Source: an uncultured Planctomycetales bacterium (GTDB lineage Bacteria > Planctomycetota > SZUA-567 > JAFGNG01). From it: a stretch of 64,000 nt of DNA. The stretch covers positions 11,421 to 75,420 of the forward strand of contig CAZOBJ010000001.1 of the NCBI GenBank assembly GCA_964577825.1, given 5' to 3'. Position 1 is the stretch's first letter; the number at the start of each line of letters is the position of its first letter. The notes under the pieces were generated by a model. That model made no database searches, was not told the DNA's origin, and saw nothing but the letters and a program-made list of their open reading frames with translations. Shown one piece after another: positions 2,428 to 57,709 of the stretch. The translations under genes were made by a program, and so were the position numbers.

Positions 2428-4212
2428 ATGAGGCGGGCGTCTGATCACCTGAGACGGCTGTACCGCAAGCTCATCCCACCGCGCGCCGAGACGTCCGCCG
2501 TGGGGATGACCGTGTTGCTTGCGGGCGTCGTCGGCATCGGCGCCGGCCTGCTGGCGCTGCTGCTCGGCTGGCTCATAACGTGGCTGAACCGCCACCTGTT
2601 CTTCGGTATCGGCCACGGCCTCGACGCGCTTCCCGGTCCGTGGAACTACTGCCTCATCCTGATCCCCGCGGCCGTCTTCCTGCTCGTGGCGTGGGTGCTG
2701 CGCCGCTGGGCGCCGGAGGCGTACGGGGCGGGCATCAGCCACGTGATGAGCGCCGTGGGGCGCGGCGGGTACATCCGCAGGCGCGTCATGTTCATCAAGC
2801 CCCTGGCGACTGCGCTCTGCATCGGCGCCGGCGCCCCGCTGGGGATGGAGGGGCCGGTTGTCCAGGCGGGCGCAGCCGTGGGGAGCGCGGTCGGCGGACG
2901 CTTCAAGATGGGCGTTGAGAACATCCGCATCCTCGTGGCTGCCGGGGCGGCCGCCGGGCTGGCGGCCAAGTACGGCGCCCCCATCGGCGGGGCGGTCTTC
3001 AGCGCCGAGCTGATACTGGGCAGCGCCAGCACGGCCGCGCTGCTCCCGCTGATCGTCGCCTCCTTCCTGGCCGTGCTGACGCGCCACGCCGTCATGGGCG
3101 GGACCCCGGAGTACCAGATCGCCGCCGAACACTTCCATTTCGCGGGCGCGGACTACCTGGCTTTCCTGGTGCTGGGCGTGGCCTGCGGGCTGGCGGCAGT
3201 CTATTTCATCAAGACGATCTTCGCCGCCGAAGCGACGATGGACCGGCTCTTCTCCCAGTGGTGGGCGAAGGCGCTGTTCGGCGGCCTCGTCGTGGGGCTG
3301 GTCGGTTTCCTGTGCCGGGACCTGCTGGGCACCGGGCGGCCTGTTATCCAAACCTTGCTGACGGAGCCCGAGTACTCCCTGAAGCTGCTGCTGTTGTTCG
3401 TGGTCCTCAAGCCCTTGCTCTGCAGCACTGCGCTGGCGTCCGGGACGAGCGGGGGCATATTCGCGCCTTCGCTCTTCGCGGGGGCCGCGCTGGGGGCGCT
3501 CTTCGTGCGGGTCCTCTCCGGCGGCCTCTCGCTCGAGACGGCGCCGACGGCCGCTTACGTGATGGTGGGCATGGCCGCCGTGATGGGAGCCGTCATGCGC
3601 GCGCCGCTCCAGGCGATACTGGTCACCTTCGAGCTGGCGCACAACTACTCGCTGGTGCCGCCGCTGATGATCGCCTGCGTCGTCAGCCTGAAGGTCTCGG
3701 AGCTGTTCGAGCCCGAGTCGGCCTTCACGCGCTGGCTGGTGCGCAAGGGAGAGCGAATCAGGCGCGGGATGGACTTCGCCCTTCTCGACGGGATTCGAGT
3801 TCGGGACATCATGGACGAGCAGTACGTCGCGCTGCCGGCGGACGCTTCAATCGGCGAGATCGCGCCCCTTGTCCGGGCCTCCGAGAACCGGACCTTTCCG
3901 GTCGTTGGCGATGACGGTAAGCTCGCGGGAATCGTCATGCTGGCCGGCCTGATGGCGGCGGCCGTGCGTTCGGCTGCGGGGGCGCCCCAGCCCGCCGTGC
4001 GCGAATTGCTGGAGCCCGAACCCGTTTACCTCGGGCCGGACGATTCGCTGGCCAGGGCCTGGCGGGTCATGGGGAACTACGACTACGACTGCCTGCCGGT
4101 TTGCCTGTGGACCCCCGAGGGCCTCAACATCCTGGGCATCTGCGAGAAAGAGGCGATCGTCGAGATGCACGACCGGCAGGCGTTCGTTACTCTGAGCCGC
4201 CGGTCCCGGTAG
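2428..4212 (+). CDS. ClC-family voltage-gated chloride channel / H+-Cl- antiporter with C-terminal CBS pair
   Basis: ClC signature motifs GMEGP (GxEGP) and GGIFAPS (GxFxP) are present, along with multiple TM helices. The C-terminal ~140 aa look like tandem CBS repeats. Confidence 0.9.
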   Translation: MRRASDHLRRLYRKLIPPRAETSAVGMTVLLAGVVGIGAGLLALLLGWLITWLNRHLFFGIGHGLDALPGPWNYCLILIPAAVFLLVAWVLRRWAPEAYGAGISHVMSAVGRGGYIRRRVMFIKPLATALCIGAGAPLGMEGPVVQAGAAVGSAVGGRFKMGVENIRILVAAGAAAGLAAKYGAPIGGAVFSAELILGSASTAALLPLIVASFLAVLTRHAVMGGTPEYQIAAEHFHFAGADYLAFLVLGVACGLAAVYFIKTIFAAEATMDRLFSQWWAKALFGGLVVGLVGFLCRDLLGTGRPVIQTLLTEPEYSLKLLLLFVVLKPLLCSTALASGTSGGIFAPSLFAGAALGALFVRVLSGGLSLETAPTAAYVMVGMAAVMGAVMRAPLQAILVTFELAHNYSLVPPLMIACVVSLKVSELFEPESAFTRWLVRKGERIRRGMDFALLDGIRVRDIMDEQYVALPADASIGEIAPLVRASENRTFPVVGDDGKLAGIVMLAGLMAAAVRSAAGAPQPAVRELLEPEPVYLGPDDSLARAWRVMGNYDYDCLPVCLWTPEGLNILGICEKEAIVEMHDRQAFVTLSRRSR

Positions 4213-7465: not shown

Positions 7466-7494
7466 TTGCGCGGCCACAGGCGGTTTGTTATAGT
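7466..7494 (+). promoter_or_regulatory. putative promoter of the NDK-like gene
   Basis: TTGCGC (7466-7471), a 17-nt spacer, then TATAGT (7489-7494), about 48 nt upstream of ATG 7542. Confidence 0.3.
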
Positions 7495-7541
7495 GCAGCG
7501 GCGATGTTTCTGGACGGTCCTGCGCGAGGGGGCTTCTGTCC

Positions 7542-8978
7542 ATGTCCGAAGAGGCGGAACTGGCCTACGCGCTTGTAACGCCCTACACCCTGCACAAGAG
7601 CCGTACGGGCGGCATACTGGCTCGCCTGCTCTGGGCGAACGTCCGTCTGGTCGCCGCCAGGATGTACGCTCCCCGGCCCGGAAGCGGGTTCATCGAGGAA
7701 TACTGCGACGCCATCTACGACCCGGACGAGCGGGACATCCCCCTCCGTTACCAGAAGCTGCTGATCGAATACGTCCTGGAGAACTTTGGCAAGCCCAACG
7801 CGCGGGGCATATCCAACCGCCTGGCCGTCCTGATCTTCCGCGGGCCGAATGCCCTGCACGACATCGTGGAAGCCGTCGGCCACGTCAGTCAGCGCGTCAA
7901 GGGGGACACCGTCCGCGGCACGTACGGCGACTACTTCCGGGCGAAGCGTGAGGACGTTGCGGATGACCCGGGTTATCGGGCGCGCAAGGGCCTGCTGGAC
8001 CGGTACGCGAGGCTGCGGGACGTTGACCCGGACGAGCCGACCGACGATTTCTTCGAGCCAGCCGTGCTGACCGGCGTCACGCCGAAGATGAACGAAGCCC
8101 ACCTTAAGGTGTTCCGCAAGTACGCGTACAGCGACGGGGGTTTTGTGCTGGACGCGCTGGACGGAGGGGCCGCGCAGGACGTGGAGCACTCCCTCGTGGT
8201 GCTCAAACCGGAGATATTCCGCAATCGCAACCCCTTGCCCGGGAACCTGGTGGACTTCTTTGCCCGGTCCGGGATGTTCATTACCGCAACGAAGGTTCTC
8301 GAACTGAGCGTGGCGGAGGCCAAGCAGTTCTACAGCCTGAAACTGGACCAGTTCCGCGAGCAACTCAAGGGGATGGTCGCGGACAGGGCGCGCCAGATCG
8401 TCGCCAGGGCGCGGCTGCTGGCCCGGCAGGGAGTCGAGCGCATGGGGGCCGGCACCGAGGCCGCCTTCGCGCCGCAGAACGCCCTGACCGCGGCGCAGGA
8501 GGCCGAAGGCATCTTCTGCGGCGAGGCCGGCCCCGGCGACGTGAAGCCAGCCGTCGTCGCGCGTATCTATGATGAGCTGCGCGCCAGACTGACGGACCTG
8601 GACCCGCCCGACTCTCTCTACGACGAGTTGGCCGAAGAGCTGAAGGACCTCAACGGACGCGCTGAGTTCGACGAGTTGATCCGTTACATGACCGGCAAAG
8701 ACCCCCACAGCGGCAAGCCCATCGAAGCCGGCCGAGAAACGCATTGCATGGCCCTGCTGTACTCGGGGCGGAATGCACTATCCGCCACCCGCAAGCGGCT
8801 CAAGGAGCTGCGGGAGGTTTACGGGCAGAACCTGTTGCAGAATCGGGCGCACGCGAGCGACCCGGAGGAGAACCCGCTGAAGGAGATGGAGGTGCTCGGC
8901 ATGCCCACCTCGCCGCACGGGGAGGGCAGGCCCTGTGACCTGGAACAGGTGGTCAACGAGTTCTACCCCCCGGAGTAA
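7542..8978 (+). CDS. tandem nucleoside-diphosphate-kinase-like domain protein
   Basis: The N-terminal half resembles an NDK fold (AYALVTPYTLHKSRTGGILARLL...DTVRGTYG). A second NDK-like unit starts at EHSLVVLKPEIFRN and ends with the active-site motif NRAHASD (the NxxH[GA]SD pattern). About 120 aa of charged, helical sequence is inserted in between. Confidence 0.6.
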   Translation: MSEEAELAYALVTPYTLHKSRTGGILARLLWANVRLVAARMYAPRPGSGFIEEYCDAIYDPDERDIPLRYQKLLIEYVLENFGKPNARGISNRLAVLIFRGPNALHDIVEAVGHVSQRVKGDTVRGTYGDYFRAKREDVADDPGYRARKGLLDRYARLRDVDPDEPTDDFFEPAVLTGVTPKMNEAHLKVFRKYAYSDGGFVLDALDGGAAQDVEHSLVVLKPEIFRNRNPLPGNLVDFFARSGMFITATKVLELSVAEAKQFYSLKLDQFREQLKGMVADRARQIVARARLLARQGVERMGAGTEAAFAPQNALTAAQEAEGIFCGEAGPGDVKPAVVARIYDELRARLTDLDPPDSLYDELAEELKDLNGRAEFDELIRYMTGKDPHSGKPIEAGRETHCMALLYSGRNALSATRKRLKELREVYGQNLLQNRAHASDPEENPLKEMEVLGMPTSPHGEGRPCDLEQVVNEFYPPE

Positions 8979-50911: not shown

Positions 50912-52042
50912 TCAGTAGCAGCCGTATTCCTCGCAGACCTCGACCAGCCGGACGATGTTCTCGTCGGGCGTGTCGCGCCCGCACTGGTCGCCTGTGGACA
51001 GGATGTACCCGCCGCCTTCCATGGCGGCGTCGAGGCACTTGCGCGCCTCGCGCTCGACGCCCTGGGGGTCCATGCGCAGCATCACTTCCGTGGTGTGCAG
51101 GTTGCCCTTCAGGGCGAGCTTGTGCCCGAACTCCTGTTTGACCTCGCGCAGATCGCAGTCGCCCATGGGGGGGGCTTCCAGCGGGTCTATGCAGTCCAGG
51201 TCCGTCTCGTTCGCGGCGAGCTCGACCAGGGCCCGCTCTTTGCCGCAGGAGTGCAGTGACGTGACGATCCCCGCCGCCTTGAACATGCGGGTCAACTCCA
51301 CGACGGCAGGCAGGGAAATCTCCTTCATGATCTCCACGGACTGCATGGTGATAAGGCCTGAGTTGGGGAAGAAGACGAAGTCGGGCCGCACGTCCTGCTC
51401 GATGACCTGCCGCGCGATGCGCACGAGCCGGTCCGTGACCATCCGGGCGTATTCGACGACGAGGTCGTGATGGTCGTAGTAGTCGTAGAACGCCGCTTCG
51501 GCGGGCTCGCGCATCTGGAACATCAGCATGGGCAGGTCCATGCAGAGCCCGACGACGCCGTCCTCGCCCATGTCGGCCTGGACCTTCCTGTAGCCCTCGA
51601 AGGTGGCCCGGTCCGGGTCCCCCAGCAGGTATTGGAGGCAGTCGAACTGCGCCTCCAGGTCATCTATCCACTTCTTGGTGGGCGTCGGCGCCTCGTCCCG
51701 GAGGAAGGTCTCCTCCTGGGTCAGCTCGCCCGCGGGGCAGCGGAAGTGGTTGCGCACGACGAGCCGTTCGTCCGTCTGCTCCACGATCTCCCGCCGGCCT
51801 TCGGCGTCCGGGCGGCCTGGGACGCCGGGGTAGCCGTGGTGCGAGAAGCCGTCCACGCCGTAATAGCGGACGCAGTCGTTGTATGCCTTCCAGAGGGGCG
51901 GGTCGTGGTAGTAATAGACCTGCCAGAAGGGCACGCTGAGCAGCCGGACGGGGATGAGCCAGTTCGTGTCCGGAGAGGCCGGCACGCGGTCGGGCACGCC
52001 GCCGGTCATCGCGGTCAGCATCCTCTGCCGTCGGGTCATCAT
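50912..52042 (-). CDS. uroporphyrinogen decarboxylase (URO-D) family protein (MtaA/CmuA-like, not HemE by context)
   Basis: The URO-D-like fold is recognisable by eye (MMTRRQRMLTAMTGGVPDRVP... IDPLEAPPMGD...ILSTGDQCGRDTP). The start ATGATGA overlaps the AKR stop. Confidence 0.65.
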   Translation of the reverse strand: MMTRRQRMLTAMTGGVPDRVPASPDTNWLIPVRLLSVPFWQVYYYHDPPLWKAYNDCVRYYGVDGFSHHGYPGVPGRPDAEGRREIVEQTDERLVVRNHFRCPAGELTQEETFLRDEAPTPTKKWIDDLEAQFDCLQYLLGDPDRATFEGYRKVQADMGEDGVVGLCMDLPMLMFQMREPAEAAFYDYYDHHDLVVEYARMVTDRLVRIARQVIEQDVRPDFVFFPNSGLITMQSVEIMKEISLPAVVELTRMFKAAGIVTSLHSCGKERALVELAANETDLDCIDPLEAPPMGDCDLREVKQEFGHKLALKGNLHTTEVMLRMDPQGVEREARKCLDAAMEGGGYILSTGDQCGRDTPDENIVRLVEVCEEYGCY

Positions 52043-52935
52043 CGCGTTCGCCGCTCCGGCCCCGCGGCCTGCGGGTGGATGAACCACGCCCTGCCGGGCT
52101 CCTTCTCGTAGAGGCGCTTGACCCTGTCCAGCAAGTCCCGGCGCTCGGCCTCCGAGAGCGCGCGGCCCTCGCGGGTCACACGCACGTTCTGTTCGAGCTG
52201 CTCCACGTCGTCCACGCCGACAAGCGCCGTCGAGACATCCGGCAGGTCCAGGACAAACCGGAGCGCATCCTCGGCCAGCCCCGCCTCGCCGAACCAGCCG
52301 TGTGCCATCACCTTCATCCCGATCACGCCCACGCCGCGTTCGAGGGCAGCCGGCATGACAGTCTCGTAGAACGGCCGCACGGCGGCCTGCATCGCGCCGA
52401 GGGACACGAGCAGGATGTCGAACGGGTACTCCTCCAACGCCCTGACCAGTATCTCCGGGTTCCGGTGCCCCGTCACGCCGACGAATCGCACGGCGCCGGC
52501 CTGTCGGGACTCCTCAATGGCCCTCAGGGCGCCGTTTGGCCCCATGACCTCCGACAGCTCCTCCTCCCGCGCCAGGTCGTGTATCTGGACGCAGTCGAGC
52601 CTGTCCGTTTGCAGGCGTTCGAGGCTCTGCTCGATCTCGGCGGCCATCCCGTCCCGGTCGCGGCGCAGGCTCTTGGTGGCGAGGAACACCTCGTCGCGCC
52701 GCTCCGCCATTACCAGGCCGATCTTGCGCTCGCTGCCGCGGTAGGTGTGCGCGGTGTCGATGTAGTTGATGCCCAGGTCGAGGGCGCGGTGCACGACGGC
52801 CGCCGCGTGCGCGTCGCTGCGCTGGTTGTACTTGACCCCGCCCAGCGCCACGCAGGTCACGTTGAACCCCGTCCTGCCGAGCGGCCGTGTTGGGAGCCCG
52901 TTAGCCCCTTCCGTCCGTGCCGGTCCCGCACTCAC
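52039..52935 (-). CDS. aldo/keto reductase
   Basis: RPLGRTGFNVTCVALGG...INYIDTAHTYRGSERKIG...FLATK is the AKR N-terminal signature. The start is placed at GTG 52935, overlapping the GH130 stop (GTGA). The rest of ORF 52039..53592 is an antisense or overlap artefact. Confidence 0.8.
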   Translation of the reverse strand: MSAGPARTEGANGLPTRPLGRTGFNVTCVALGGVKYNQRSDAHAAAVVHRALDLGINYIDTAHTYRGSERKIGLVMAERRDEVFLATKSLRRDRDGMAAEIEQSLERLQTDRLDCVQIHDLAREEELSEVMGPNGALRAIEESRQAGAVRFVGVTGHRNPEILVRALEEYPFDILLVSLGAMQAAVRPFYETVMPAALERGVGVIGMKVMAHGWFGEAGLAEDALRFVLDLPDVSTALVGVDDVEQLEQNVRVTREGRALSEAERRDLLDRVKRLYEKEPGRAWFIHPQAAGPERRTR

Positions 52936-54131
52936 CGGAGCCCCATCTCCTTCATGGCCTTCAGGTTCCGGCCTATCAACTCGTCCCTCTGCCGCACGCA
53001 GGCGCAGGAACGCAGTGGGTCCTCCGGCGTGTGGAGGACGTAGTCCAGCAGCCGCTCGACTGTCGTCGTGGCGACGAAGATGCGCGTGTCGGCCGAGCCG
53101 TAGTAGATGAAGACCCGGCCGTCGTCGCGCATCACGGCGCCGTTGCAGAAGACGGCGTTGGAGACGTCGCCCACGCGCTCCTCGTAGCGCGGTGCGATCA
53201 GGTAGCCACCCGGCCGGTGCGTGACGACGCTCGGATCGTCCGGGGAGCAGAGGAACGCGTATAGCACGTAGCGCATCCCGGCTGCCGTGCCGCGCACGCC
53301 GTGCGCGACGTGGAGCCAGCCCTCCTCGGTCTTCAGCGGGGGAGGGCCGTCGCCGTTCTTGGACTCGTTGATCGTGTGGTAGGTCCTGGGGTCGATGACT
53401 TTCTCCTCGTGGACGACGGCGTGCTCGACGTCGTCGCAGAGGGCCCAGGCGATGCCCGCGCCCCTGCCGACCCCCGCGAAGCCCTCCTGCGGGCGCGTGT
53501 AGAAGGCGTAGCGCCCGTCCACGAACTCCGGGTGCAGGACGACGTTGCGCTGCTGCGGGGAGGGCGACTTCAGGTCTTCGAGCCTCTCCCATTCCTCGAG
53601 GTCATGCGTGCGGGCGATGCCGCACTGCGCCACGGCGGAGGACTCGTCCCCGGGCGGCGCGTCCGGGTCCTTGCGCTCGACGCAGAAGACGCCGTAAGTC
53701 CAGCCGTCCTCGTGGCGGGTCAGGCGCATGTCATAGAGATTCGTCCCGGGGGCCTCCGTCTCGGGCATGAGGATGGGATGATCCCGGAAGCGGAATCCGT
53801 CCACGCCGCTCTCGCTCTCGGCGACGGCGAAGAAGGACTTGCGGTCGAGTCCCTCGACTCGGCAGACCAGGCAGATGCGGCCGTCCAGCTCGATGGCGCC
53901 GGGGTTGAAGACGGAGTTCACGCCGAGCCGCTCGATCAGAAGCGGGTTCGTTTCATAGTCGAGGTCGTAGCGCCAGAAGACGGGGACGTGCTCGCGCGTG
54001 ACGACGGGATGCCTGTAACGCTCGTAGAGGCCGTTGAACCAGCGCCCGTCAACATCGTTCCTGCGGCCGAGAAACGCCTCCTGCTCGCGGAACAGCTCCC
54101 GGACCCTTTCCGTGAACGTCTCTCTGTCCAT
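52932..54131 (-). CDS. GH130 beta-mannoside phosphorylase (4-O-beta-D-mannosyl-D-glucose phosphorylase-like)
   Basis: The protein is 399 aa. The N-terminal helix plus five-bladed propeller sequence (NPLLIERLGVNSVFNPGAIELDGRICLVCRVEG...YYGSADTRIFVATTT) matches GH130 subfamily-1 enzymes as I remember them. Confidence 0.8.
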   Translation of the reverse strand: MDRETFTERVRELFREQEAFLGRRNDVDGRWFNGLYERYRHPVVTREHVPVFWRYDLDYETNPLLIERLGVNSVFNPGAIELDGRICLVCRVEGLDRKSFFAVAESESGVDGFRFRDHPILMPETEAPGTNLYDMRLTRHEDGWTYGVFCVERKDPDAPPGDESSAVAQCGIARTHDLEEWERLEDLKSPSPQQRNVVLHPEFVDGRYAFYTRPQEGFAGVGRGAGIAWALCDDVEHAVVHEEKVIDPRTYHTINESKNGDGPPPLKTEEGWLHVAHGVRGTAAGMRYVLYAFLCSPDDPSVVTHRPGGYLIAPRYEERVGDVSNAVFCNGAVMRDDGRVFIYYGSADTRIFVATTTVERLLDYVLHTPEDPLRSCACVRQRDELIGRNLKAMKEMGLR

Positions 54132-54259
54132 CTCTCTTTGATCCCTTTCCGGATGTAGCGGATGTCCGCAACGTCAAAGTAGCGGGTCCAGCGTGTTGGG
54201 GCAAGTGCTGGTCCGGCTGGCAGTGTCGCGCCTGCCTGACGGCGAAGGAGGGTTGCGTC

Positions 54260-54913
54260 TCAGGAATCCCTGCCCGGCAGGCGCCTGCACATTCGGCCGA
54301 CGATCTTCTCGGCGACGCGCTGACGCTGGGGTGAGAGCTCGCCCCCGATGACGGCGCCCGCAATGCCCCCGCCGACGCCCCCGGCGGTCTTGCCCTCCCG
54401 GTCGCCGCCGACCGCCCAGCCGATGCTCGCGCCGATGACGGCGCCCGTCGCCTCGAAGATGGTCCGGTTCGTGCTGCCCGCGCCCGAAGCAGTCCAGAGG
54501 ACTCGCGCGTCGTCCACGTCCACCATCTGCGCCGTGACGGACATCTTGTCGCCGGCGATGGTGAGTTCCCCGTACAGCACCGCGTCCGCGTCGAGCAGGC
54601 GCCGCGCGCGGGCCAGCGCCTCGGGGACGAGCCCGGCGATTTCCTGGAAGTCGCGCTCCTCGAACACAGCCTTCACGTTGCGCCGCTCGACCACGTCGTA
54701 GCCCCTGTCGAGCAGTTCGATGGTGAAGAAATGCGCTATCTGGTTCTTGGCGGCCTCGCTCCACAGGTCGCCGCCGACGTCCACGACGGCGATCTTCCGC
54801 ACCCGCGCGGGGTCGTAGTCCCGCGCGACGGAACTCCGGGTCGAGCCGCACCCGCAGAGCATCCCGGCCAGCAAGACCAGCGCGACGAGCACGGTCGGGC
54901 GGTCGGCCATCAT
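54260..54913 (-). CDS. CsgG/LpoB-like lipoprotein with C-terminal glycine-zipper segment
   Basis: The start ATGATG at 54913 overlaps the upstream stop. A lipobox is present (LAGMLCGCGS). KIAVVDVGGD...FFTIELLDRGYDVVERRNVKAVFEE follows the CsgG/HfaB/LpoB pattern. The tail GAVIGASIGWAVGG...GGVGGGIAGAVIGG is glycine-zipper-like. Confidence 0.6.
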   Translation of the reverse strand: MMADRPTVLVALVLLAGMLCGCGSTRSSVARDYDPARVRKIAVVDVGGDLWSEAAKNQIAHFFTIELLDRGYDVVERRNVKAVFEERDFQEIAGLVPEALARARRLLDADAVLYGELTIAGDKMSVTAQMVDVDDARVLWTASGAGSTNRTIFEATGAVIGASIGWAVGGDREGKTAGGVGGGIAGAVIGGELSPQRQRVAEKIVGRMCRRLPGRDS

Positions 54914-56085
54914 TCCTCCATTCCGGCCAGTGTGTGCAGGCAGTTGCGCAGTGCGCCGCGTACGGCGGTCCTCGCGGCGCTCTCCTCGGATGATGTACGG
55001 TCCGGCTTCAGGCCGCGGGCGGACGCCGAGGCATTGGCCAGCGGGCTGCCGTCCCGGGGGTCGAACGCCGTCACGGTGCACTCGACGCGGGCCTCGAAGG
55101 CCCGCAGGCCGTATGCCTCGATCCAGCCTCTGGCGGCCACAGTGCGGAGCCGCACGGCAAGCAGCCAGTCCGCCTCGGCCTCGATGGCGGCGACGCGGAG
55201 ATGGCTCAGCGCTGCGGGGTCCTCGATCCATGCCCTGGCCATTGCCGGCGCCGCGTCGTCCGTTGGCCGGGGCTCGACCACGAAGTACGCCGACCTCCCG
55301 GTCAGGTCGGGGAAGACGCCCTCCAGCCGCTCCAGGCGCTCCGCGATGCGCGTGAGGGCCGCCTCGTCCTCGGTCAGGTCTAGGGCCGCCTCCAGTACGA
55401 GGGCCGCCCGGTCGGGCATTCCCGCCTCCTCGTGGGCTCGGGCCAGCGTCAGCCGCACCGGCGCGGGCGCGTCGGGCTGCTCGTCGAGCAGCCCATCCAG
55501 GACCTCTGCCGCATCGCCCGGCCGGCCCTCGCCCAGCAGGTCGATGGCGCGCTCCAGGTCAACCGCCACCCGCGTGAGGCGGCGGATGTTGCGCTCATAC
55601 TCCTCCCGCGGGTATCCCGCGAGCACGTAGTACTTGTAGCGGACGAAGGAACGGCTGAGCAGGCCCGGATCGACGTGCCACTTCTCCCAGTAGCTTTCCT
55701 TCTGGGCGACGCCGCGAATGCTCTGCCGCACGCTGGTCCGCAGTTCGCGCACGTACTCGGCGTCGTTGGTGTCACTGCCTCGGGGTGCATAGCCGCGCTC
55801 GCGGATGGTCTCCTGGCTTAGGACCTCGACCTCGGTCTGGCGCAGCGCGGCGGCCTGCTCCCGCGCGTGCTCCATGGCCCGACTGCGCATGGCCCGCTCA
55901 TCCAGCACGTTCCTGCCGACGGCGAGGCCGACCAGCAGCATTTCGGTGTCCGTGTCGGCCGGCGTGCGGGTCACCCATTCGGGCGTCGTCCTGGACTGGC
56001 CCTGAAGCGTCTCGGATGCGCACGAAACCGTCAGCGCGCACGAGACGACGCACGCGATGAGCTGCGTGTACCGGCGTGCCGTCAT
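54910..56085 (-). CDS. lipoprotein: LPP20-like N-terminal domain + helical (TPR-like) linker + C-terminal domain of unknown function
   Basis: The start is ATG 56085 (MTARRYTQLIACVVSCALTVSCAS). Residues ~30-190 are paralogous to the upstream 181-aa lipoprotein (PEWVTRTP / PIWVVQTP, RAMEHAREQ / RAMEDVRDQ, YWEKWHV / YWEKWKV, KYYV, YER). Confidence 0.6.
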   Translation of the reverse strand: MTARRYTQLIACVVSCALTVSCASETLQGQSRTTPEWVTRTPADTDTEMLLVGLAVGRNVLDERAMRSRAMEHAREQAAALRQTEVEVLSQETIRERGYAPRGSDTNDAEYVRELRTSVRQSIRGVAQKESYWEKWHVDPGLLSRSFVRYKYYVLAGYPREEYERNIRRLTRVAVDLERAIDLLGEGRPGDAAEVLDGLLDEQPDAPAPVRLTLARAHEEAGMPDRAALVLEAALDLTEDEAALTRIAERLERLEGVFPDLTGRSAYFVVEPRPTDDAAPAMARAWIEDPAALSHLRVAAIEAEADWLLAVRLRTVAARGWIEAYGLRAFEARVECTVTAFDPRDGSPLANASASARGLKPDRTSSEESAARTAVRGALRNCLHTLAGMEE

Positions 56086-56116
56086 GGCCAGGTCCCCGGA
56101 TGCAGAGTACGGGCCG

Positions 56117-56662
56117 TCAGGCCCCACGCTCCAGGTCGGCCGCTACGTTCTCGGCGAGCGCCTTGAGCAGGCGCTCGTAGATCGCCTTCGGCATGACCGC
56201 CTTGACGTAGTACTTGTATTTCGTGTAGCCGAAGAGGCCGAAGCCCTGCTTGACCTTCCATTTCTCCCAATAGTGCGCGTCCTGCTTGACCCCCGGCATG
56301 GCCTGGTCAACTCTGCTCTTGACCTCGGCAGTGTAGGCCGCATTGTCGACGTCCTTGCCCAGGTGCGGGGCGCCCCTCTGTTCGACGATGTCGATAGCCT
56401 CGCGGACCATGTCGGTCTGGAGGGAGGAGGCTATCTGGTCCCGCACGTCCTCCATGGCGCGGTTGCGGGCGTTCTTCTCGTCAAGGATGTTGTCAGCCAG
56501 GGACATGCCGACGAACACCTTGCTTTCCTGCGTATCCTCCGGGGTCTGTACCACCCAGATGGGCGGCCCCGGGTGACTGGATTCGAGCCTCTTCTCGTAG
56601 GTGCAGCCTGCGAGGGCCGCGGCACAGACCAGCACGGCCAGGACACCGATCCTGCCTTTCAT
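56117..56662 (-). CDS. LPP20-like lipoprotein
   Basis: A strong SD (GGAGAAGGAGG) and a perfect lipobox (ALAGC) are present. The architecture resembles H. pylori Lpp20 as I recall it: a P-x-WV motif, then a helical A/R/Q-rich segment, then a C-terminal beta segment. Confidence 0.6.
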   Translation of the reverse strand: MKGRIGVLAVLVCAAALAGCTYEKRLESSHPGPPIWVVQTPEDTQESKVFVGMSLADNILDEKNARNRAMEDVRDQIASSLQTDMVREAIDIVEQRGAPHLGKDVDNAAYTAEVKSRVDQAMPGVKQDAHYWEKWKVKQGFGLFGYTKYKYYVKAVMPKAIYERLLKALAENVAADLERGA

Positions 56663-56748
56663 AGTGCCACCTCCTTCTCCAGCAAGTCACGTTGCGATTC
56701 CGGACGCAACTGCCGCGCGTCCCCGCATTTGCACGGCGCGCTCCAACA

Positions 56749-56777
56749 ACTGTATGGGCTGGGTCGGGCATTGTCAA
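56749..56777 (-). promoter_or_regulatory. putative promoter of the lipoprotein operon
   Basis: On the minus strand: a perfect TTGACA (56777-56772), a 17-nt spacer, then TACAGT (56754-56749), about 85 nt upstream of ATG 56662. Confidence 0.4.
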
Positions 56778-56869
56778 CACCTCATCCGGGCCGACCGTGC
56801 CCCGGTGCTTGTGTTCCGCCCGGGGACCGGGTACATTTCCCGCTCCGCATTGTTGGGAGAGGAGCACAC

Positions 56870-57709
56870 ATGATCTGGGGTTACGCCGGTGTCTGGCCGG
56901 GGGAGTTCAGGGTCTGGGAAGGCGATCCGTCGATGAACCAGTTGCGGTTCATCATCGAGCATGGGTTCCAGTCCACGGGCTTCAATCTCTCGGAGATGCG
57001 CGATCCCGCGCGCCGGGACGAGGTGGCGGCGCTGGTCGAGCAGCACGACCTTCGGCTCACGGCTCACGCGCACGTCAGGTGGTTCGATCCGGACGTCGAC
57101 GAGGCGAGGCGCCAGACGGACGCCTTCCTGGAGGACCTGGCCGCCTACGGCGACCTGCTGCGCGTCCCCATCGTCACCATGGTGGCCGGGCGGTGCCACC
57201 GCTTCATGGACAGCCCGTCCCTGGCGGAGCAGATGGACTGCCTGGCGCAAGTCCTGCCGTACGCGGCGCAGGCGTGCTACGAGATGGGCCGCCCGCTGGG
57301 CATCGAGAACCACGGCGACTACTATTGCAGCGACCTCGTCGAGCTTTGCCAGAGGGTCCCCCACCTGGGCATCTTCCTGGACACGGGGAACACTTACCTG
57401 ATAGGCGAGAAGAGCATCCCCGCCTGTCGCGAGGCCGCGCCCTACACCATCGGCACGCACTTCAAGGACCACTACGTGCATCCCGAGCCGCAGGACGGGC
57501 TGAAGTTCGTCATCGGGGGCGCCCCGCTCGGCGAGGGCCACGTCGGCCTGGAACAGGTCTACAGGGACCTGCTGGACCTGGCGCCCGAGCCGGACAAGCT
57601 GGTGATGCACTGGGAGATGGTGCCGCCGAAGGGCATGGACGGGTTCGAGTGCCTGGAGCGGAGCTGGCGATTCGTGCGGCGGATCACGGGCCAGCCGGAG
57701 GCCGCGTAA
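56870..57709 (+). CDS. sugar phosphate isomerase/epimerase (xylose-isomerase-like TIM barrel)
   Basis: The start is ATG 56870 after GGGAGAGGAG. LGIENHGDYYCS, IFLDTGN and THFKD are typical AP-endonuclease-2 / XI-like TIM-barrel metal-site segments. The upstream 271 aa of ORF 56057.. are antisense to the lipoprotein gene. Confidence 0.75.
   Translation: MIWGYAGVWPGEFRVWEGDPSMNQLRFIIEHGFQSTGFNLSEMRDPARRDEVAALVEQHDLRLTAHAHVRWFDPDVDEARRQTDAFLEDLAAYGDLLRVPIVTMVAGRCHRFMDSPSLAEQMDCLAQVLPYAAQACYEMGRPLGIENHGDYYCSDLVELCQRVPHLGIFLDTGNTYLIGEKSIPACREAAPYTIGTHFKDHYVHPEPQDGLKFVIGGAPLGEGHVGLEQVYRDLLDLAPEPDKLVMHWEMVPPKGMDGFECLERSWRFVRRITGQPEAA

Follow-up and report, generated by a model that had tools for sequence, protein, structure and literature searches.

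Do three lipoprotein genes that lie next to one another in a planctomycetal genome also work as one unit at the cell envelope? The question is raised by a locus on contig CAZOBJ010000001.1 (assembly GCA_964577825.1) from an uncultured Planctomycetales bacterium, of which a stretch of 64,000 nucleotides (nt), hereafter called the window, was analysed. The genes, named A, B and C in their order of transcription, are found on the minus strand at positions 54260-56777 of the window. Our favoured interpretation, to which we assign a probability of about one-half, is that the three products would act together as a hetero-oligomeric lipoprotein scaffold that is anchored in the outer membrane on its periplasmic face, forms a ring or lattice, and has a structural or organising role. 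Such a scaffold is best read as a non-flagellar analogue of the FlgO/FlgP rings of Vibrio.

A first-pass annotation of this DNA had proposed a three-gene lipoprotein operon, and the proposal is borne out. The three open reading frames (ORFs) are present (Table 1), B and C overlap at an ATGA, and all three products carry lipoprotein signals. We read the genes as an operon because they share one strand, are separated by a gap of only 31 nt (A-B) or overlap by 4 nt (B-C), are preceded by one promoter-like site, and are not interrupted by an internal terminator.

The main argument for joint action comes from relatives of the operon, which were compared by ORF-level BLAST searches and gene tables (lineages are coded L0xx). 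The A family comprises 21 clusters among 5.8 billion sequences, and the B family comprises ~10 clusters by word search and ~14-20 full-length representatives in an exhaustive search. A survey of 185,579 species representatives yielded only four loci, all of them in metagenome-assembled genomes (MAGs) of Planctomycetota (Ca. Brocadiia, Planctomycetota, a record titled 'Brocadiaceae', and Phycisphaeraceae, the last being a 25% identical match), and six further loci come from metagenomes. Gene B directly follows gene A in all nine lineages with enough contig to judge. Gene C follows B in six lineages (the window, L005/L014, L013, L015, L019 and L021/22), with gaps of no more than 11 nt or with the 4-nt overlap that L005 and L021/22 share with the window. 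C is absent from L017 and L018, where a CsgG-like/TPR lipoprotein of 318-340 amino acids (aa) is encoded just upstream of A-B; its domain is recognised by the C profile (expectation value, E, ~1e-6). In both arrangements, then, the LPP20-like pair is accompanied by a CsgG-class protein. LPP20-like, TPR and CsgG/FlgO domains also occur within a single chain, as in protein P0097 (order LPP20 - TPR - CsgG/FlgO - DUF4384), and B-like architectures recur. Because the partner is kept in two arrangements and the domains are fused in relatives, the two domain types are likely to work together. Co-occurrence of the genes in other genomes had been set beforehand as a test of the module, and the A-B(-C) order is indeed kept in several Planctomycetota lineages amid unrelated flanking genes.

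These comparisons also bear on an explanation in which there is no joint complex. C alone would be an outer-membrane stabiliser of the SlyB/YfgH type, and A and B would be separate LPP20-type lipoproteins on the same transcript. Consistent with this explanation, C-like genes are solitary on other contigs, A-B occurs without C in L017, L018 and probably L023, and glycine-zipper lipoproteins can work as homo-oligomers (bioRxiv 10.64898/2025.12.22.696046). However, where C is missing (L017 and L018), the gene just before A-B encodes another CsgG-class lipoprotein, the start/stop overlap of B and C is kept in the window, L005 and L021/22, and LPP20-like and CsgG-like domains are fused in relatives. 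We consider separate action of the three proteins to be quite unlikely.

A and the N-terminal portion of B (the first ~165 mature residues) are 37% identical over 174 aa (E 2e-37). The paralogy noticed at first pass is genuine and not a product of low complexity. Motifs that are invariant in the A/B alignment include P-x-W, G, N-x-L-D-E, YWEKW and RYKYYV, and the latter two lie on the last two strands of the B N-terminal domain, which is predicted to fold as beta-alpha-alpha-beta-beta-alpha.

The label 'LPP20-like', which the first-pass annotation had applied to both proteins, holds at the level of the family but not at that of the individual sequences. Neither A nor B matches Pfam LPP20 (PF02169, IPR024952) even at E 10. 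In contrast, two A orthologues that are 55% and 51% identical to A exceed the LPP20 gathering score of 25.9 over residues 34-136 (P0018 with 31.9 bits and P0019 with 28.3 bits), and LPP20 is matched by 10 of the 93 remote A/B-domain relatives recovered by exhaustive profile search. When the PDB was searched with a profile of the wider family, the top match was Helicobacter pylori Lpp20 (5OK8, E 6.6e-4), whereas a narrow A+B profile yielded only TPR proteins. The match was then scored with signal peptides removed from the profile comparison and with the Lpp20 sequence checked against its PDB entry. Under these conditions mature Lpp20 scores 21.9 bits with the wider-family profile, compared with 7.5 bits for the best of 2,000 shuffles, and 17.7 bits with the narrow-family profile, for which shuffles reach 16.9.

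The AlphaFold2 model of B (mean predicted local distance difference test score, pLDDT, of 87.3) places in the N-terminal domain a strand at residues 48-58, a helix at 63-97, an inserted helix at 105-122, strands at 127-139 and 147-159, and a final helix. These elements fit the SHS2-like beta-alpha-beta-beta core reported for FlgP and Lpp20, into which a helix is inserted, but 5OK8 falls outside the top 50 Foldseek matches. Because the Pfam scores of the orthologues, the remote relatives and the Lpp20 profile match are consistent at the family level, A and the B N-terminal domain are filed as a divergent branch of the LPP20 family and not as FlgP.

The resemblance to H. pylori Lpp20 (HP1456) is that of a small LPP20-type lipoprotein with a P-x-W-V motif and an FVG strand followed by a long helix. 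At the level of sequence, however, the two are only marginally similar, Lpp20 has other partner proteins, and YWEKW and RYKYYV are confined to the planctomycetal family. The role of Lpp20 itself is poorly defined, and its operon also encodes a second protein of the same fold.

The TPR-like stretch that had been proposed for B is present: over residues 183-244 the TPR_19 score of 28.4 bits exceeds the cutoff of 25, and BamD and other TPR chains are among the PDB sequence matches of the A+B profile. The additional C-terminal domain had been estimated at ~110 aa; a domain does exist there, but it spans ~134 aa. With the B model as query, Foldseek returned 2IQI (XCC0632/DUF330, E 2.8e-5) as the best PDB match, along with 7RXU, 4KWY, 4UV2, 5T11 and LptE at values up to E 2e-3; proteins named in this list are Cj1090c, CC_3750, CsgG, PelC, LptE, GNA1162 and FlgT. 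These matches are to the whole model, with the aligned query residues unreported, and their assignment to residues 258-391 is made by topology: the predicted topology of this segment equals that of the domain in C, and the domain order of P0097 agrees. A nearly identical list of matches has been published for the ring-forming PqiC-like lipoprotein PA3214, and the same paper describes the listed proteins as outer-membrane lipoproteins that have one alpha/beta core in common (PMC13631591). Profile-profile comparison of the B C-terminal domain, the C domain and the LPP20-like domain gave nothing significant, and we therefore do not claim common ancestry for the B C-terminal domain and the C domain. 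A candidate disulfide between Cys336 and Cys382 of B was dropped, as these cysteines lack clean co-variation across homologues.

Gene C had been described as having a CsgG/LpoB-class core. The class assignment stands insofar as C passes the Pfam cutoffs for CsgG (PF03783; 27.8 bits against 20.8, covering only model positions 32-99 of 210) and, marginally, for FlgO (PF17680; 23.6 bits against 22.6, residues 57-144, model positions 39-123 of 130, overlapping the CsgG match). The fold, however, is nearest to PelC, GNA1162 and LpoB rather than to CsgG. Foldseek searches with the AlphaFold2 model of C (mean pLDDT 73.8, with most of the folded domain at 80-95) match PelC at E 3.6e-8 to 1e-6 (target-normalised template modelling score 0.57-0.68), GNA1162 at E 2.6e-7 and the LpoB C-terminal domain at E 1.2e-5; the TolB N-terminal domain and FlgT also match, and CsgG is absent from the top 50 structural matches. 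On the model, C is a PelC/FlgO-class lipoprotein and not a CsgG channel, because its domain is only ~130 aa long and lacks the hairpins that build the CsgG pore. Compared with CsgG, C lacks the full-length fold, the two membrane-spanning beta-hairpins of the 36-strand pore, and csgE/F partners; no csg genes lie near the operon.

The glycine-zipper ending proposed for C at first pass is evident in the sequence, where nine overlapping GxxxG motifs occur in 37 residues as two GxxxG-rich segments around a polar loop. Most relatives of C carry PF05433, PF13441 or PF13488 in precomputed annotation, whereas the Pfam scores of C itself remain just below cutoff (21.7 bits each for Gly-zipper_Omp and Rick_17kDa_Anti, with cutoffs of 25 and 24.2), and a weak match to YiaD_Gzip_OmpA was also seen. 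This region has pLDDT values below 50 in the monomer model. C resembles SlyB, YfgH and YiaD in combining a lipoprotein anchor with a putative two-helix GxxxG hairpin, but C has its zipper after a PelC-like domain, whereas in those proteins it comes before a small beta-domain or an OmpA domain. Beyond the zipper, the C-terminal tail carries invariant P194 and P212, has a Cys in 13 of 15 sequences, and forms a helix at residues 194-209 with pLDDT values of 86-93.

C-like lipoproteins with a PelC-like domain and a glycine zipper (36-39% identical) also stand alone in L009/L010 (3336-5639), L011 (5001-5639) and L012 (3963-6895). In L009 and L010 the C-like gene is divergent from a gene for an MltA lytic transglycosylase, and in L012 it is flanked by genes for a multi-pass membrane protein on one side and a 394-aa lipoprotein on the other, both without a Pfam match.

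A, B and C each start with a basic n-region and a hydrophobic core that lead up to a cysteine. The signal peptides end in the canonical LAGC in A, in TVSC in B and in LCGC in C, and most B orthologues have L-x-S-C. The lipobox Cys is invariant in 31 of 31 aligned A/B sequences and in 15 of 15 C sequences. Because an equally invariant C-x-x-E and, in the B model, a strand directly follow the lipidated Cys, the LPP20-like domain of A and B is suggested to lie close to the membrane. In the C model the first strand begins two residues past the lipidated Cys.

The architecture of C also invites an explanation based on regulation of cell-wall enzymes, in which C would be an LpoB- or TolB-N-like lipoprotein that reaches a peptidoglycan synthase or hydrolase, with A and B as adaptors. 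The matches of C to the LpoB C-terminal domain and the TolB N-terminal domain fit this role, as do the solitary C homologues that adjoin an MltA gene in L009 and L010. However, LpoB needs a long disordered linker to cross the periplasm, and no such linker separates the lipid anchor from the globular domain in the C model. The glycine zipper would pin C to the membrane as well, no peptidoglycan enzyme is conserved near the A-B-C loci, and PelC and GNA1162 are better structural matches than LpoB. A cell-wall function of this kind seems to us very unlikely.

Another possible role is that of an accessory of export. In this case C, and perhaps the C-terminal domain of B, would form a PelC/PqiC-like periplasmic ring that docks on an unlinked outer-membrane barrel or trans-envelope conduit and steers a polymer or lipid through that membrane, the TPR of B standing in for that of PelB. 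C is structurally closest to PelC dodecamers and the PelBC complex, B matches the PqiC-like XCC0632 best and then LptE, CsgG and PelC, all of these proteins serve transport across or into the outer membrane (PMC13631591), and the operon of the window is situated among sugar-handling genes such as GH130. Against an export role, no barrel, MCE, synthase or glycosyltransferase gene is conserved beside the module, the flanks differ among lineages, the link to sugar genes is not conserved, and C lacks the membrane hairpins of CsgG. PelC, of the Pel polysaccharide export ring, and GNA1162 (DUF799) are outer-membrane lipoproteins, but their sequence similarity to C is insignificant (E 0.08-0.25). PelC forms a 12-mer ring under the membrane, and for C the comparison concerns only the fold; neither pel genes nor a PelB-type TPR-barrel are found near the operon, and PelC lacks the glycine-zipper hairpin of C. 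B has the same set of fold matches as PA3214, yet in B the domain to which the matches to PqiC/XCC0632 (DUF330), LptE and the CsgG core are assigned ends a three-domain lipoprotein, which has no MCE, Lpt or curli partners nearby and no CsgG barrel hairpins. We regard an export function as unlikely.

A precedent for the scaffold that we favour is provided by the H-ring of Vibrio, in which the lipoproteins FlgP (LPP20 family) and FlgO, each lipidated at its N-terminal Cys, associate 1:1 by way of their beta-sheets, giving two concentric C58 rings that are fixed to the outer membrane (bioRxiv 10.64898/2025.12.02.691832). PelC, PqiC and CsgG likewise form rings (PMC13631591), and the glycine-zipper lipoproteins SlyB and YfgH insert into the outer membrane, in which disc-like oligomers of them have been found or predicted (bioRxiv 10.64898/2025.12.22.696046). 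By analogy, each of the three proteins would be tethered by its N-terminal lipidated Cys, and C would be further pinned by its glycine-zipper hairpin. A and the B N-terminus would supply two LPP20/FlgP-type domains, the B C-terminus and C would supply two alpha/beta domains of the FlgO/PelC/PqiC/CsgG class, and the TPR of B could serve as a spacer or adaptor. Co-assembly through sheet-to-sheet contacts like those of FlgO and FlgP might then give a ring or lattice that stiffens or organises a patch of outer membrane outside a flagellar context. In proposing this scheme we infer that the proteins sit in the outer and not the inner membrane, that they physically assemble, that the assembly has ring geometry and that its role is structural. 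A Pfam search of A, B and C found no enzyme, ATPase or beta-barrel domain.

Given this precedent, the module might instead be an accessory of the flagellar motor itself, as a planctomycetal counterpart of the FlgO/FlgP/FlgT H-ring or of the FlgP basal disk. C exceeds the Pfam FlgO cutoff, A and B belong to the LPP20/FlgP family, and FlgT is among the fold matches of both B and C. In addition, the module resembles the Vibrio FlgO/FlgP (with FlgT) system in that an LPP20-family lipoprotein is encoded with a lipoprotein of the FlgO/CsgG clan, both anchored by an N-terminal Cys. However, no flagellar gene was found within ~6 kilobases (kb) at any locus examined, and neither FlgO nor FlgP has a TPR or a glycine zipper. 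Unlike the Vibrio system, the module has two LPP20-like paralogues instead of one, B fuses LPP20-like, TPR and alpha/beta domains, C has a glycine zipper and a conserved tail, and a beta-hairpin insert of the FlgP type is not predicted in B. A place in the flagellar motor is accordingly the explanation that we find most improbable.

Several observations weigh against the joint scaffold. The association of A, B and C is one that we infer, for a module known from metagenome-assembled sequences only. An A-like gene stands alone in L008, and C-like genes do so on other contigs, where MltA or housekeeping genes adjoin them; partnership of the parts is thus not obligatory. The fold matches of B were placed on its C-terminal domain by topology, the aligned part of B being unreported, and profile-profile comparison finds no sequence similarity between that domain and the domain of C. 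Finally, FlgP forms rings and shares its SHS2-like fold with Lpp20, but ring formation of the FlgP type correlates with a beta-hairpin that is inserted after the helix and before the second strand (PMC12222027), and the B model has a helical insert where ring-forming FlgP has this hairpin.

Table 1. Features of the A-B-C locus in window coordinates.
Feature	Position	Strand	Description	Basis
Gene A	56117-56662	-	181 aa lipoprotein, lipobox LAGC, Cys20, divergent LPP20/FlgP-like domain	ORF
Gene B	54910-56085	-	391 aa from ATG, three-domain lipoprotein, Cys22	ORF
B residues 22-185	55531-56022	-	LPP20-like domain paralogous to A	Alignment, invariant columns and model
B residues 186-257	55315-55530	-	Short TPR-like stretch, five helices	TPR_19, model
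B residues 258-391	54913-55314	-	Predicted alpha/beta domain (beta-alpha-beta-beta-beta-alpha), assigned to the PqiC/LptE/PelC/CsgG fold class	Topology and domain order of relatives
Gene C	54260-54913	-	217 aa lipoprotein, lipobox LCGC, Cys22	ORF
C residues 24-154	54452-54844	-	PelC/GNA1162/LpoB/FlgO-like alpha/beta domain	Pfam and Foldseek
C residues 155-191	54341-54451	-	Glycine-zipper hairpin ATGAVIGASIGWAVGG-DREGKT-AGGVGGGIAGAVIGG	Motif count, sub-cutoff Pfam
C residues 193-217	54263-54337	-	Conserved basic C-terminal helix, LSPQ...K.C..LP.R	Family alignment, model
Promoter match	56749-56777	-	Sigma-70-like, TTGACA-17 nt-TACAGT (10/12)	Consensus scan
Shine-Dalgarno sequence	56670-56674	-	GGAGG, 7 nt before the gene A ATG	Read from sequence

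The ATG of gene C (54913-54911) overlaps the TGA of gene B (54912-54910), and public gene calls start C one codon later, giving 216 aa. For gene B, an alternative GTG start at 56127 would give 405 aa but would run into gene A, and the ATG start is also used by the gene calls on identical public contigs. Numerous long ORFs (100-550 aa) run across the three genes on the plus strand or in alternative frames (54174-56166), for example a 550-aa ORF at 56057-57709 on the plus strand. Their Arg/Pro/Gly-rich composition is typical of chance ORFs in DNA with 65-72% guanine plus cytosine (GC), and none of them is called as a gene on public contigs.

The promoter-like site and the Shine-Dalgarno sequence noted at first pass are both present. 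The promoter match is the sole one within 53900-57100 (3.2 kb), where 0.1 is expected from shuffles. However, it is not consistently kept in related loci, since a plausible site is found at L021 and none on the right strand at L013 or L005, and TTGACA-17-TACAGT therefore remains a mere consensus match. A search for terminator-like sites on the minus strand found none inside or after the A-B-C unit, and the 128-nt spacer between C and GH130 and the 5' untranslated region fold no better than shuffles. Because of the missing terminator-like site and the unremarkable folding of this spacer, transcription past gene C into GH130 is possible. There are no Rfam matches within the window. Horizontal transfer of the operon was considered and set aside, as the GC content is even across the region.

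Around the operon, the window holds a cluster of genes for the utilisation of sugars or sugar acids. Downstream (50912-54131) are genes for GH130, an aldo-keto reductase and a URO-D-like protein, and upstream (56871-~62500) are a divergent xylose-isomerase-like TIM-barrel gene, two genes of the enolase superfamily (MR_MLE), a KDPG-type aldolase gene and a PfkB kinase gene. The flanks vary from one lineage to another: the GH130, aldo-keto reductase and xylose-isomerase-like genes of the window are replaced by isocitrate-dehydrogenase-family and thioredoxin-TPR genes in L005 and by phosphoesterase and ABC transporter genes in L013. A functional tie to the neighbouring sugar genes was rejected on these grounds. 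The thioredoxin-TPR fusion (287 aa), found in L005 at 7491-8354 and in L006 at 3220-4083 (MAG JAGHAF01, Planctomycetota), lies on the same strand 60 nt after C, and is not next to the module in the other lineages.

A gene of the URO-D family recurs 0.1-3 kb upstream of A in L013 (4010-5047), L019 (3222-4304) and L008 (1994-3022), with 63-69% identity among the products. The URO-D-like gene of the window (50912-52042) lies downstream of the operon and is only ~21% identical to these, and the window holds no orthologue of them. This recurring neighbour probably represents residual synteny rather than a functional link.

Other lipoproteins accompany the LPP20-like domain elsewhere. In L017 (2133-6828) and L018 (446-5147), the gene order is a 620-636-aa lipoprotein, the CsgG-like/TPR lipoprotein, A and B, and the first two genes overlap. 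The 620-636-aa protein has no Pfam match and carries four internal repeats of an aromatic motif, roughly YP-x-Y-x-WFG...P...Y. No homologues of these two extra lipoproteins are encoded in the 64-kb window. In L026 (1-10257), the 618-aa P0097 is encoded near an FGE-sulfatase, a FlgT_N protein, two caspase-like Peptidase_C14 proteins and a CHAT-TPR protein, and DUF4384 is carried by 14 of the 93 remote A-domain relatives. LPP20-TPR lipoproteins may thus form a wider class, as yet unstudied, with links to caspase-like proteases.

Every domain described here belongs to a known superfamily, and what is new is their combination and its conservation. Two LPP20-like proteins, of which B also contains a TPR and a domain assigned to the PqiC/PelC class, are here combined with a PelC-class glycine-zipper lipoprotein, all outside a flagellar or export locus. 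Annotation based on Pfam would label the products 'hypothetical', 'TPR' and 'CsgG family', and a search of the literature found no paper on the A-B-C module. Its immediate impact is limited, given that the module is rare, comes from metagenomes only and offers no functional hint beyond its architecture.

Several large rings beneath the outer membrane are built from lipoproteins of the LPP20/FlgP and FlgO/PelC/PqiC types, and the pairing kept in two arrangements, together with the fusions, is a clue that LPP20-like and CsgG-class domains work together generally. A bolder and doubtful proposal is that the module is a free-standing relative of the FlgO/FlgP H-ring, forming a new non-flagellar ring or disc under the planctomycetal outer membrane that marks or supports some structure of the envelope, for example a pore, a pit or the base of a fibre. 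If this were true, ring scaffolds of the FlgP/FlgO type would predate flagella or exist independently of them. If one free-standing, non-flagellar module does combine both types, it could show what role such scaffolds had before they were recruited to motors and exporters, and with the joint scaffold, if real, the planctomycetal envelope would gain a defined protein complex.

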